Positions 6,164-63,478 of a DNA stretch of 64,000 nucleotides are shown here, one piece after another; the first letter of the stretch is position 1; every line of letters starts with the position of its first letter. The stretch spans positions 1,120,001 to 1,184,000 of the forward strand of contig CAWEJX010000020.1 in assembly GCA_963809485.1 (NCBI GenBank), read 5' to 3'. The position numbers were made by a program, and so were the translations under genes. Source of the DNA: an uncultured Acidobacteriota bacterium (GTDB lineage Bacteria > Acidobacteriota > UBA6911). The notes under the pieces were generated by a model that worked only from the letters and a program-made list of their open reading frames with translations, was not told where the DNA came from and did not search any database.

Positions 6164-6556
6164 AGCATCCTCCGGCAAGGCCGGAGGCTTGAAAGATTTG
6201 AACCGCTCCAAGCGGTTGGAGGAGTTATGCCGGTCTTGAACGCTGACTTACGCGGGCAAAAGCCGATGAGGCGCTTCCGATCCCCGCAGGGGCAAGCGCT
6301 CCGCGCTGGACAGTTTTCTGCGGCGGCACTGTGGCAAGCGCCGTGCGGCAAGGAGATGAAGGGTATGAGAAACCGGGCGTTTGCCACAGTGCCGCCGCAG
6401 AAAACTCCATCGGAAGCGCTTCATCGGCTTTTGCTCGCCGACCCTCGCCGAACAAATCGGCGTTTGTCAGCGTTTTTATCAACGTTTCTCAGCGTTTCAA
6501 AATACGGAGCTGTCAAACTCTTTGAGTCCCCCGGCAGAGCCGGGGGTTTACCAATG
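6164..6556 (-). mobile_element. Nested non-autonomous element with IS200-like hairpin ends, full copy 1
   Basis: End hairpins CCTCCGGC-aag-GCCGGAGG and CCCCGGC-aga-GCCGGGG; nested IRs 6252-6281/6409-6438 and 6312-6337/6381-6406; five more copies in the window. Confidence 0.8.
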
Positions 6557-6686
6557 TAGTTCGCCTCAATCCTGACATTACGCCTCCCAGAGACCTCCCG
6601 GCCTGGCCGCAATTTATTTTCATCCCTGAACCTGTTGGCTTATGATGGTTTCCGAAATCCTAACCTCCAACTTGAAAGGGCGATGT

Positions 6687-12320: not shown

Positions 12321-12482
12321 CCGCACTGCCCATCGTCCATATATTTTCCTCTGCCATAAGGGCCTACTGCGTATCTGCAAACAGACAGCGCAAGCCTGAT
12401 TCGGCCATATCTCTTATCATACCGGCAAGAGAAGAGCAATTTCTTGATCCAGGTCAACTTTGGACAATTGGGACAATTGTTT

Positions 12483-12652
12483 ATTGGGGTCGGACCACGA
12501 TAAATCTTTAGAACCAAATGAGAAAGGTTCATTTTAGGTTATCCCAAATCCGCTTGGACAAAATATTGGGGGGGGATTTTGGGGCTGTAACGAAACCCGG
12601 CACGGATGCGGTAAAGAGCATATATAGTTGGGGGGGACGGACCACAATATTT
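12483..12652. repeat. RAYT 3'-side REP-like/direct repeat copy
   Basis: ATTGGGGTCGGACCACGATAAATC followed by about 120 bp similar to 13491-13636; a degenerate GGGGACGGACCACAATA follows. Confidence 0.7.
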
Positions 12653-13366
12653 ATTTGATTGTTCTTCTTTGACGTACCAATCGCCGTCTTCTGTCGTGGC
12701 TATATGGAATCTTTTCCTTTTCTTAGTTCTGGAAATAATCTCCTTCAGAAATTCCTCGCTGCCAACTGCAATGCTTTCCGTCCATATTCCTTCGCGGATC
12801 AAACGGCTGTTTTTAATTGATTCAAGAATGCGCTGTTGATGGATCTCTGCCATAGATTTCCTGTTGCTCAAACCCAACAGATCAACAAGTCGCTCGATAT
12901 CGAGGACGCGAAATCGCTGGCGATTGCCAACAAGCTCATGATAGCCGCACCATGCCCAATCGTTGGGATGGGAGACAACGCCCGCCCGCACCATGTTGAG
13001 ATCGATATATCGCAGACAATTCCAAAGATGGTCGCCGCCATCAATCATGGTGGAGTGAAATCGCTCTCCCCAGAATGCTCCGGAGCGATGCTTTCGAAGG
13101 TTGTAATAGCCTGCAAACTCGCCCTCCAACTGTTGCATGAATCGGCTGAGATCTGAAAGGCGGTCGCACATCCCCAGTAGATGGACGTGGTTGCAGGTGA
13201 TGCAAAAGCTAAAGAGAGAAATTCGATGTTTTAGGACGGCTTTTCTCATCCTGACACGATACTCAATTCTGTCAAGTCTGTTTCGCAATAGGAATTGGCG
13301 ATTGTGGCAACGTTGAGTTAGGTGATAAACATACCCCGGCAAGATATAGCGGTTGGCGCGTGGCAT
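12539..13366 (-). CDS. REP-associated tyrosine transposase (RAYT, Y1 HUH family)
   Basis: MPRANR..PGYVYHLTQRCHNR, HUH motif NHVHLL, RSGAFWGERF, catalytic Tyr in RYIDLNMVRAG; AT-richer than flanks. Confidence 0.9.
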   Translation of the reverse strand: MPRANRYILPGYVYHLTQRCHNRQFLLRNRLDRIEYRVRMRKAVLKHRISLFSFCITCNHVHLLGMCDRLSDLSRFMQQLEGEFAGYYNLRKHRSGAFWGERFHSTMIDGGDHLWNCLRYIDLNMVRAGVVSHPNDWAWCGYHELVGNRQRFRVLDIERLVDLLGLSNRKSMAEIHQQRILESIKNSRLIREGIWTESIAVGSEEFLKEIISRTKKRKRFHIATTEDGDWYVKEEQSNKYCGPSPPTIYALYRIRAGFRYSPKIPPQYFVQADLG

Positions 13367-13490
13367 GAAAACCTCCATATTGAAATAATGACCTGGATGC
13401 CGAAAAGGGGCCAGAAGCCTTCATGCATGGCCCTTTTCACCTTTTTCTAATGGAAAGTTCCTCATATTTATCAACAATTTATTGTGGACA

Positions 13491-13744
13491 ATTGGGGTCG
13501 GACCGCGATAAATCTTTGGAACAGAGGCGGAAAGGCTCGTTTTGGCCTATCCAAAATCCGCTTGGATAAAATATTGAAGGGAATTGAATTGGGGGGCTGT
13601 AAGGGATCGAGTACGCACGCGGTTACGAGCATTTATGCTTACACGCAAATAATGCGGCCCAAATTTGAGTGTAAGGCCCCTTTTCTCTTCCGAAAATCGA
13701 GCTAACTCAAATATAGGCAGGATTTATCGTGGTCCGACCCCAAT
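13491..13744. repeat. RAYT 5'-side inverted REP doublet
   Basis: ATTGGGGTCGGACCGCGATAAATC (13491) and GATTTATCGTGGTCCGACCCCAAT (13721-13744), 24-bp IR with one mismatch. Confidence 0.8.
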
Positions 13745-18409: not shown

Positions 18410-18499
18410 GGAGGAATGGCCGAGTGGTTGAAGGCGGCGGTCTTGAAAACCGTTAGGGGGGTAACCCCCTCGTGGGTTCGAATCCTACTTCCTCCGCCA
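18410..18499 (+). tRNA. tRNA-Ser (anticodon UGA)
   Basis: GGAGGAA/TTCCTCC acceptor stem, GCGGT-CTTGAAA-ACCGT anticodon arm, long variable arm, GGTTCGAATCC T-loop, encoded CCA. Confidence 0.97.
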
Positions 18500-30785: not shown

Positions 30786-31001
30786 GTCAGGTACCTCCGG
30801 CAAAGCCGGAGGCAAGCTTTGAACCGCTCAAAGCGGTTGGAGGAGTTGCGCTGGTCTTGAACGCTGACTTACGCGGGCAAAAGCCGACCCTCGCCGAACA
30901 AATCGGCGTATGTCAGCGCTTTTGTCAGCGTATCTCAGCGTTTCAAAATACGGAGCCGTCAAACTCTATGAGTTGCCCGGCAGAGCCGGGGATTTACCAA
31001 T
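30786..31001 (-). mobile_element. Nested element copy 2 (inner IR layers absent)
   Basis: Same end hairpins; GCGGGCAAAAGCCGA joins directly to CCCTCGCCGAAC. Confidence 0.8.
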
Positions 31002-31167
31002 AGAATCAGACGAAATGGAATTCTTGTTCATTCGTGTCTATCGTGTTTAAAAGGTCACTTCGCCGTTGCCCGGACGTATGCGGACCGGCGCGCAGGGGAG
31101 CACGCCGACATTGACTGGCCCTTTGGCACCCACTATTATCTGCGCAGGTCCGACAACGGGAGATGAA

Positions 31168-37882: not shown

Positions 37883-38117
37883 ATCAGGCGCCTCCGGCAA
37901 AGCCGGAGGCTTGAAAGATTGGAACCGCTCAAAGCGGTTGGAGGAGTTACGCTGGTCTTGAACGCTGACTTACGCGGGCAAAAGCCGATGAGGCGCTTCC
38001 GATCCCCGCGGAAAAAATCGGCGTTTGTCAGCGCTTTTGTCAGCGTATTTCAGCGTTTCAAAATACGGAGCTGTCAAACTCCATGAGTCCCCCGGCAGAG
38101 CCGGAGGCACCCCCGAT
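37883..38117 (-). mobile_element. Nested element copy 3 (partial inner deletion)
   Basis: Same ends; keeps the left arm GCGGGCAAAAGCCGATGAGGCGCTTCCGAT only. Confidence 0.8.
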
Positions 38118-45041: not shown

Positions 45042-45228
45042 GTCAGGTGCCTCCGGCAAAGCCGGAGGCTTGAAAGATTTGAACCGCTCAAAGCGGTTGG
45101 AGGAGTTACGCCGGTCTTGAACGCTGACTTACGCGGGCAAAAGCCGATGAGGCGCTTCCGATCCCCGCCGAACAAATCGGCGTTTGTCAGCGCTTTTATC
45201 AGCGTTTCTCAGCGTTTCAAAATATGGA
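45042..45228 (-). mobile_element. Nested element copy 4 (inner deletion; one end truncated)
   Basis: Left hairpins intact; match stops after TTTCAAAATATGGA. Confidence 0.75.
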
Positions 45229-51416: not shown

Positions 51417-51812
51417 GTCAGGCACCTCCGGCAAAGCCGGAGGCTTGAAAGATTGGAACCGCTCAAAGCGGTTGGAGGAGTTACACTGGTCTTGAACGCT
51501 GACTAACGCGGGCAAAAGCCGATGAGGCGCTTCCGATCCCCGCAGGGGCCAGCGCTCGGCGCTGGTCAGTTTTCTGCGGCGGCACTGTGGCAAACGCCCG
51601 GTTTCTCATAACCTCCATCTCATTGCCGCACGGCGCTTGCCACAGTGCCGCCGCAGAAAACTCCATCGGAAGCGCCTCATCGGCTTTTGCTCGCCGACCC
51701 TCGCCGAACAAATCGGCGTTTGTCAGCGCTTTTGTCAGCGTATCTCAGCGTTTCAAAATACGGAGCTATCAAACTCCAGTAGTCACCCAGCCATGCTGGG
51801 CAATTGCCTATG
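51417..51812 (-). mobile_element. Nested element full copy 5, 43-bp core inverted
   Basis: Core 51594-51636 is the reverse complement of 6338-6380; end hairpin diverged to CCCAGC-cat-GCTGGG. Confidence 0.8.
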
Positions 51813-62980: not shown

Positions 62981-63478
62981 GGTAAGATGGGGACACTCGC
63001 CATTGTCCCCTTTCCCCAAAACAGCCCCTACCGGTCAGGTACCTCCGGCAAAGCCGGAGGCTTGAAAGATTGGAACCGCTCAAAGCGGTTGGAGGAGTTA
63101 CGCCGGTCTTGAACGCTGACTTACGCGGGCAAAAGCCGATGAGGCGCTTCCGATCCCCGCAGGGGCCAGCGCTCCGCGCTGGACAGTTTTCTGCGGCGGC
63201 ACTGTGGCAAGCGCCGTGCGGCAAGCAGATGAAGGGTATGAGAAACCGGGCGTTTGCCACAGTGCCGCCGCAGAAAACTCCATCGGAAGCGCCTCATCGG
63301 CTTTTGCTCGCCGACCCTCGCCGAACAAATCGGCGTTTGTCAGCGCTTCTATCAGCGTTTCTCAGCGTTTCAAAATACGGAGCTGTCAAACTCTTTGAGT
63401 CTCCCAGCAGAGCCGGGGATTTACCAATGTAATTAAGTGTTTCTTTAAGGGGACATTCGTGACTGTCTCCATCTTACC
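62981..63478. repeat. Imperfect 32-bp REP-like inverted pair enclosing nested element copy 6
   Basis: GGTAAGATGGGGACACTCGCCATTGTCCCCTT (62981-63012) versus AAGGGGACATTCGTGACTGTCTCCATCTTACC (63447-63478). Confidence 0.65.
63034..63429 (-). mobile_element. Nested element full copy 6
   Basis: Near-identical to 6164-6556, core in the same orientation. Confidence 0.82.

Follow-up and report, generated by a model that had tools for sequence, protein, structure and literature searches.

A probable IS200-derived, non-autonomous element with a long nested palindrome, repeated at hundreds of loci in an Acidobacteriota genome

The element in the window and in the genome

The window is the whole 64-kb stretch of DNA analysed here, C20:1120001-1184000 of the assembly that we label G000 (6.04 Mb, 21 contigs, 55.6% G+C, 95.7% complete). 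An earlier note on this DNA had listed six copies of a non-coding repeat in it. We read the six places and found all six copies, every one on the + strand and all lying between ORFs by crude ORF calls, as the note had claimed. They are listed below together with the modules of copy 1, for which a repeat finder gave the inverted arms, and with two other features of the window.

6169-6558, + strand: copy 1, full-length, subfamily A; the 8-nt RE tail is absent at the left edge and the right flank differs from the usual ATYA
6169-6217, + strand: RE module of copy 1, with hairpins at 6169-6187 and 6201-6217; homologous to the tnpA-downstream end of IS200 elements
6239-6253 and 6460-6474, + strand: L2 arms of copy 1, 15 nt, 87% complementary
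6252-6281 and 6409-6438, + strand: L3 arms of copy 1, 30 nt, 93% complementary
6312-6406, + strand: L4 palindrome of copy 1, with 31-nt arms (6312-6342 and 6376-6406, 97% complementary) around a 33-nt core at 6343-6375
6528-6558, + strand: LE module of copy 1, with a hairpin at 6528-6546 and a 12-nt tail; homologous to the tnpA-upstream end of IS200 elements
12539-13378, - strand: ORF of 279 aa with a Y1_Tnp (IS200-like) match
18410-18496, + strand: tRNA gene, the sole Rfam match in the window at the gathering threshold
30786-31004, + strand: copy 2, subfamily B; consensus positions 103-277 deleted at a 5-nt GCCGA microhomology, both ends intact, flank ATCA
37883-38107, + strand: copy 3, subfamily B; consensus positions 126-286 deleted, terminal LE tail replaced
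45042-45228, + strand: copy 4, subfamily A; consensus positions 126-286 deleted, truncated before the LE hairpin; clean empty site in G006
51417-51776, + strand: copy 5, subfamily B; interior full with the 33-nt core inverted, right end replaced and right terminal hairpin absent
63034-63431, + strand: copy 6, a complete subfamily A element; flank ATTA at 63432-63435; clean empty site in G006

Both ends are complete in copies 2 and 6 only, and copies 3 and 4 are without intact right termini. Copies 1, 5 and 6 had been taken as full. This holds for copy 6, and it needs correcting for copy 1 because of the missing left tail and for copy 5 because of the inverted core and the missing right hairpin.

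The family is far larger than the six copies to which it had seemed limited. When the whole genome was searched by blastn, 757 HSPs came out; merged, they make 333 loci, which are spread over 19 of the 21 contigs and add up to 81,329 bp, or 1.35% of the assembly. The consensus element is 403 nt long. About 93-100 of the loci are full-length, and the next largest classes are those without the centre. Full copies match with E-values of 1e-179 or lower, so chance is excluded. Outside the element copies we noticed solo RE or LE hairpin remnants of 20-32 nt (G000:C4:66700-66731, C20:213138-213168, C16:120641-120671 and 9 other places), which may be leftovers of deletions that took out nearly the whole element.

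The nested inverted repeats and the terminal hairpins were found in copy 1 as the note had described them, with a correction to the innermost palindrome. L4 had been given as a perfect 26-bp inverted repeat around a 43-bp core; the 26 perfect bases are there, inside the longer 31-nt arms, and the core is 33 nt. We also saw three TCAGCG units at 6460-6497 with a spacing of ~11 nt (one helical turn) and one inverted unit on the left side, and other copies are alike. By its layout this looks like a putative phased protein-binding array. Among 95 full copies there are two subfamilies, with 66 in one core orientation (A), 28 in the other (B) and 1 unclear. Core orientation is tightly linked to the subfamily SNPs (p about 1e-13), a pattern that fits one old inversion that was later inherited, apart from a few exceptions.

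Folded as single-stranded DNA, copy 6 reaches -136.6 kcal/mol, as against -73.2 +/- 4.7 kcal/mol for shuffles (z = -13.4). The interior is predicted to form one rod and the end hairpins to stay free, which agrees with the suggestion that a full copy could fold into one long hairpin. The covariation check that had been proposed gave double-sided changes in 9 of 141 pairs, compared with 2.4 +/- 1.3 in shuffles and 0-2 in slid controls, and the L3 helix was 100% paired, in an alignment of 4 sequences (two from G000, one from its congener G006 and one from G127, which belongs to another genus of the same family) that also supplied the structure. We regard this covariation of the palindrome arms as suggestive only, and arm-to-arm conversion could yield the same pattern.

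No Rfam family matched the element at the gathering threshold in the window. When one copy was searched at E <= 1, a plant miRNA model and isrG came up below threshold, the best at 41.6 bits where 88 are needed; the hits are hairpin-shaped and we took them as chance. A sequence scan of copy 6 found no promoter-like sites and one terminator-like site, which is the chance level. In public runs the element occurs without its flanks in wetland and soil metagenome contigs, with a small share in RNA libraries; the best DNA runs are possibly the source sample, and contigs show neither strand nor transcription. The flanks and the inner palindrome have little cover in the DNA run, which proves nothing.

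Ends, target sites and orientation

We placed the edges of the element by aligning the 95 full copies with their flanks, which gave (A)GTCAGGyACC on the left and ACCAATrkA on the right. The first ~55 nt and the last ~50 nt match independently in relatives. Both end modules flank an IS200 tnpA on the opposite strand in G007, where the gene is broken by one TGA, and an N-terminally truncated tnpA in G002. An internally deleted IS200 in G030 keeps the same RE, that is, the downstream end. G045 has an intact 143-aa TnpA between ends of the same design, in the order hairpin, conserved GTTTGACA box, gene, two hairpins and short tail. The closest ends with an intact tnpA are those of a Desulfamplus MAG, whose RE matches at 90% over 50 nt, and in both this MAG and G045 the similarity includes the region just inside the LE. 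A Leptolyngbya plasmid has an annotated IS200/IS605 tnpA and, immediately upstream of this gene, sequence that matches the right end of the element. The terminal hairpins had been likened to the subterminal hairpins of tnpA-only IS200/IS605 elements, and the likeness turns out to be true homology, since the same modules flank tnpA in G007, G002, G045, the Desulfamplus MAG and the Leptolyngbya plasmid. The IS200 copies of G007, G002 and G006 are all broken or truncated.

The ends are also found more widely. A scan of species genomes with the G045 TnpA left 80 loci in many phyla. Among the 50 strongest matches, more than 40 are to the LE hairpin at 100% identity (19-23 nt), mostly downstream of tnpA and at several loci also upstream. 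In a plasmid collection the two end modules alone match, in 6 records.

From the homology of the ends, the right end on the + strand of the window is the LE of the IS and the left end is its RE, so the IS top strand is the reverse complement of the + strand. The tail measures ~12 nt at the LE and only 8 nt at the RE. End logos built from 239 left and 216 right ends contain no terminal inverted repeats, and their consensus is A(81%)|GTCAGGyACC ... ACCAATrkA|ATYA. In the ATYA flank that adjoins the LE, the first A is present in 97% of the 216 right ends, the T in 96%, T or C in the third place in 77% and 18% (95% together) and the last A in 90%. On the top strand this reads TRAT, element, T. The target words of IS608 and ISDra2 are TTAC and TTGAT.

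Empty orthologous sites had been named as something to look for, and we compared 10 sites with G006, where the flanking DNA is about 88-91% identical, using flank-anchored alignment for some of them. Four of the ten are clean empty sites without target duplication, namely those of window copies 4 and 6, C20:982993 and C20:802462. The element is also absent at three more (copies 2 and 3 and C20:819860), with flanks that have diverged in G006 and junctions that are unreadable at base level. End remnants are left in G006 at two sites, C20:806447 and the copy 5 site, which holds a 24-nt RE remnant (L026). At the last site both genomes have the element, with an identical internal deletion. For copy 1, G006 offers no syntenic region. 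Because one site is shared down to its deletion and others are empty, the family is older than the split of the two species, and copies were later gained or precisely lost. Excision by IS200/IS605 elements is precise, so the empty sites could be excisions.

The orientation of the copies follows the contigs. We counted 76+/4- on C20 (95%), 0+/24- on C6, 21+/1- on C1 and 10+/0- on C16. On C7 the orientation switches between 440 and 483 kb, from 17+/2- on the left to 2+/13- on the right, and 30 of the 34 copies are concordant. The single dnaA match in the genome lies at C7:454563-455039, and the GC skew changes sign at the same place. Gene strands are balanced (516+/491- on C20, by crude gene calls) and the flanking genes show all four arrangements (98 convergent and 61 divergent contexts), so the bias is not an effect of gene orientation. 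With forks leaving dnaA, the IS top strand is on the lagging-strand template. This is also the strand used by IS608, ISDra2 and other members of the family, whose left end inserts 3' of a short word (Lavatine et al., PMC5027513).

With local GC skew in 50-kb windows as a proxy for the replichore, 247 of the 333 copies are concordant. The number is no higher because the skew is weak, and we relied on dnaA and on the uniformity within contigs instead. The replichore assignment rests on one dnaA locus and this weak skew, which is a thin basis. C8 is mixed (28+/18-), unlike the other large contigs, and the terminus, rearrangements or misassembly are possible causes.

Four places in the genome match Y1_Tnp, none of them inside a copy. 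One is the window ORF listed above, and the others are as follows.

C6: IS200-type gene interrupted by a TAG stop; LE alike in layout, with another stem
C20, at 492k: Y1_Tnp fragment
C15, positions 1405-1857 of locus L002 (G000:C15:224127-227471), - strand: intact 150-aa IS200-family TnpA

None of the four, in the 21-contig assembly, is an intact cognate tnpA with matching ends. The assembly is incomplete, and a cognate copy may be unassembled. An intact tnpA with the same ends, which had been suggested as a check, thus exists in G045 and in the Desulfamplus MAG and was not found here. The G006 ortholog of the C6 gene is open in the region searched, with two bases different near the C-terminus by reading. 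The claim that the window has no tnpA is contradicted by the ORF at 12539-13378 (-), but this ORF is non-cognate, as its flanking repeats differ from the element's ends. On the REP_Tyr_transpos model it scores 71.6 bits, short of the cut-off (80). On both sides it has a local repeat of its own, direct and inverted (12456-12575, 13491-13576 and 13721-13744), with only 4 BLAST hits genome-wide; the C-terminus of the ORF runs into one repeat copy, and the true protein may be shorter. The surroundings of the C15 TnpA are REPtron-like: on either side of it stand arrays of a three-hairpin REP-like unit, and the two sides are oppositely oriented. One hairpin of this unit has 38 occurrences in the genome by a simple pattern, and the same units follow a G006 IS200 copy (L019). 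The idea of a TnpB or guide-RNA system was dropped, as the genome has no PF07282 match.

Shortened copies and the history of the layers

With every locus aligned to the consensus, we could sort the large internal gaps into about 100 alignment classes, artefacts among them. There are at least 30 real, distinct deletions. They are centred on the axis of the palindrome and many have 3-7 nt of microhomology. The commonest, in consensus coordinates, are 126-286 with 123-283 (one deletion, with CGC microhomology), 103-277 (at a GCCGA repeat), 118-278 and 92-276. Identical deletions occur in subfamilies A and B; in the window, copy 3 (B) and copy 4 (A) both have 126-286. Long palindromes readily undergo slippage from one flanking direct repeat to the other. 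The short copies are products of repeated deletion of an unstable palindrome, and the stepwise loss of layers that had been read from the six copies gives way to dozens of different microhomology deletions on the palindrome axis, recurring in both subfamilies. Three of the same junctions also appear in contigs of other public runs, although these runs and the source sample may be connected. Divergence is slightly higher in deleted copies (3.30%) than in full ones (2.86%; p = 0.03), a difference too weak to show that only full copies move.

The layers themselves had been explained as captured repeats of other families, with BLASTN of each layer separately as the check. In this genome, L4 with its core and the small hairpins beside L4 gave 0 HSPs outside the 333 loci, and L2/L3 gave marginal HSPs only. 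The full element is missing from G002 and G015, and both contain a small repeat of a separate kind; its centre shows homology to L2+L3, and there the L3 arms are 6 nt apart. This repeat (L028/L029 at G002:C54, L033 at G002:C210, L030 and L034 in G015) is ~150 nt long; its terminal inverted repeats are imperfect, and it contains phased ACGCGGAT/ACGCTGAC units.

Searched across the class, L4 and its core matched 6 of 137 genomes. The full segment or most of it is present in G000, G006 and G127, and the matches in G128, G130 and G135 cover the first 27-28 bases only and are weak (E 1e-4 to 5e-4). G127 has one full composite copy (L037 1337-1748, at G127:C405) with ~80-86% identity and compensatory changes in the arms, and also one diverged deleted copy; this MAG is rated 8% contaminated and the host assignment is uncertain. 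L4 with its core was never found on its own, in this genome or in the search of 137 genomes, and in G127 it sits within the whole element. With the whole composite in G127 and no free L4, the nest is old, and it probably arose a single time and spread as one unit from then on. The idea of captured repeats is supported in part, by L2+L3, which have independent relatives in G002 and G015, and not by L4 and its core.

Classification, alternatives and significance

We conclude that the repeat is very probably a non-autonomous IS200/IS605 member of ~400 bp, or PATE. Its two ends are those of a tnpA-only IS200, the place of the transposase gene is taken by an imperfect palindrome ~230 nt long, and it would be moved in trans by an IS200 TnpA; its interior has repeatedly been lost. 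It has the features of a PATE in its IS200/IS605-type subterminal hairpins, the lack of terminal inverted repeats, target duplication and coding capacity, the flanking target word and the core deletions. The one feature of such elements not found in this assembly is a resident intact cognate TnpA. No description of this architecture had been known to the authors of the earlier note; the class has in fact been described as PATEs (PMC3119063), and for this particular element we found no description in the literature searched.

We infer a single-strand mechanism for its movement. An IS200 TnpA (a Y1 HUH enzyme), supplied in trans, would recognise the subterminal hairpins on the top strand and excise this strand as a single-stranded circle at the replication fork. 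It would then paste the circle 3' of a TRAT word on the lagging-strand template, without target duplication. As in other IS200/IS605 elements, guide sequences 5' of each hairpin would mark the cleavage sites. Once inserted, the palindrome is unstable and is repeatedly lost by deletion between the short direct repeats on either side of the hairpin, which leaves the shortened copies.

The PATEs of Haloquadratum walsbyi, as reported, likewise have no terminal inverted repeats, near-terminal palindromes related to IS200/IS605, no target duplication, a length too short for a transposase, a short targeting word, a 5' tail longer than the 3' tail and core deletions between repeats (PMC3119063). According to the same report, no intact cognate tnpA is present in that host either, all copies being broken. 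The element described here differs from them in its bacterial host, in a parent that is a tnpA-only IS200 and not of the IS1341/TnpB type, in forming one homogeneous family of 333 loci, in the long nested palindrome inside and in its documented replichore orientation. With the IS200 group and its models IS608 and ISDra2, it has in common the subterminal hairpins, insertion 3' of a tetra- or pentanucleotide abutting the LE and, as we would expect from the orientation, a strand-specific single-strand transposition tied to the lagging-strand template (PMC5027513). Both of its ends are homologous to those of intact IS200 copies, in G045 and the Desulfamplus MAG; unlike those elements it has no tnpA inside, and its target word is TRAT. 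PATE-like elements of Geobacillus stearothermophilus are also minimal and non-autonomous, with LE and RE as in IS200/IS605 copies, and mobilisation in trans by a single tnpA has been predicted for them (PMC10055086). These belong to TnpB/IscB families, often with guide RNAs, and are described as about 47 in all (PMC10055086), whereas we found 333 loci and no TnpB match. What we add to the known class is a full-length master form with a nested palindrome, a genome census, the TRAT target with its empty sites, the flip in orientation at dnaA and the account of the layers by recurrent deletion.

REP/BIME and REPIN elements with RAYT enzymes are likewise abundant hairpins between genes, with Y1 HUH enzymes believed to act on them (PMC3733652, PMC3333891), and REPs too resemble IS200 hairpins (PMC3333891). 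The repeat could then consist of REP doublets spread by a domesticated RAYT and not by an IS200 transposase, and Y1 enzymes do occur here in RAYT-like settings, if we consider the REP_Tyr_transpos score of the window ORF and the inverted hairpin arrays around the C15 TnpA. That score, however, is under the cut-off, and both candidate enzymes are flanked by other repeats, the window ORF by its rare local repeat and the C15 gene by its different three-hairpin unit. REPs are units of 20-40 nt with a single-copy enzyme flanked by its own REPs (PMC3733652), whereas the ends of this element flank neither RAYT-like gene. The element measures 400 bp and is flanked by a specific target word. It has separate LE and RE modules, and these agree with the ends of bona fide IS200 elements, also in the region just inside the LE. 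We give the REPIN account only the slimmest of chances. The similar GC-rich hairpins at the two ends, in opposite orientation, create a weak impression of terminal inverted repeats and could recall a classical MITE moved by a DDE transposase. This reading deserves next to no credence: true terminal inverted repeats are lacking, the four clean empty sites have no target duplication, the orientation bias with the replichore is 95% on C20, and the ends are homologous to IS200.

Two other explanations concern the interior. One takes the short copies as ancestral and derives the long ones by nested palindromic insertion into hairpin loops. For the origin of the nest this has some merit, since L2+L3 occur free in G002 and G015 with arms 6 nt apart, and a single entry of L4 into an L3 loop, ahead of the spread of the composite, is probable; the other genus (G127) already has the composite in full. 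As an account of the copies in this genome we find it very improbable. At least 30 different junctions cannot stem from one insertion, they have microhomology in the full sequence and the same ones recur in A and B, L4 is never alone, and it is the deleted copies that are slightly more diverged. The other explanation is that the repeat is primarily a structured RNA gene or a family of regulatory hairpins (terminator, mRNA stabiliser or small RNA), repeated by chance. The strong fold, the 9 double-sided pair changes in the four-sequence alignment, the excess of convergent over divergent contexts and the fact that contigs of three metatranscriptome libraries contain parts of the element, the inner palindrome among them, would all suit such a role. 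But RNA libraries can contain DNA and the contigs are strandless, arm-to-arm conversion also makes palindrome arms co-evolve, and neither the Rfam search nor the scan of copy 6 for promoters and terminators points to an RNA gene. Orientation tracks replication and not the flanking genes, and the insertions are polymorphic between species. We judge a primary RNA function to be very improbable, although the element may have a secondary RNA or structural role beside its mobility.

A tentative idea, which on balance we doubt, is that the long palindrome is a selected part of the transposon and not passive cargo. As a single-stranded rod of ~150 bp it would bring the LE and RE hairpins next to each other at the foot of the rod, and this could help a TnpA acting in trans to synapse the ends or could protect the single-strand circle. 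Such selection would explain why the full-length form stays the commonest class in spite of constant deletion. It would also explain the persistence of the nested architecture across two genera at 80-86% identity and the compensatory arm differences between them (4 double changes in long helices, with few broken pairs).

The family offers a clean natural record of single-strand IS200-type transposition, with hundreds of young copies, a readable target word and empty sites in a sister species, and it is at the same time a large natural sample of palindrome deletion junctions. The flip in orientation at dnaA could serve for ordering and orienting contigs by replichore in draft genomes like this one. 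At 1.35% of the genome, the element probably breaks short-read assemblies of the lineage, and annotators should mask it. If the palindrome does help transposition, this would amount to a new principle in the design of non-autonomous single-strand transposons.
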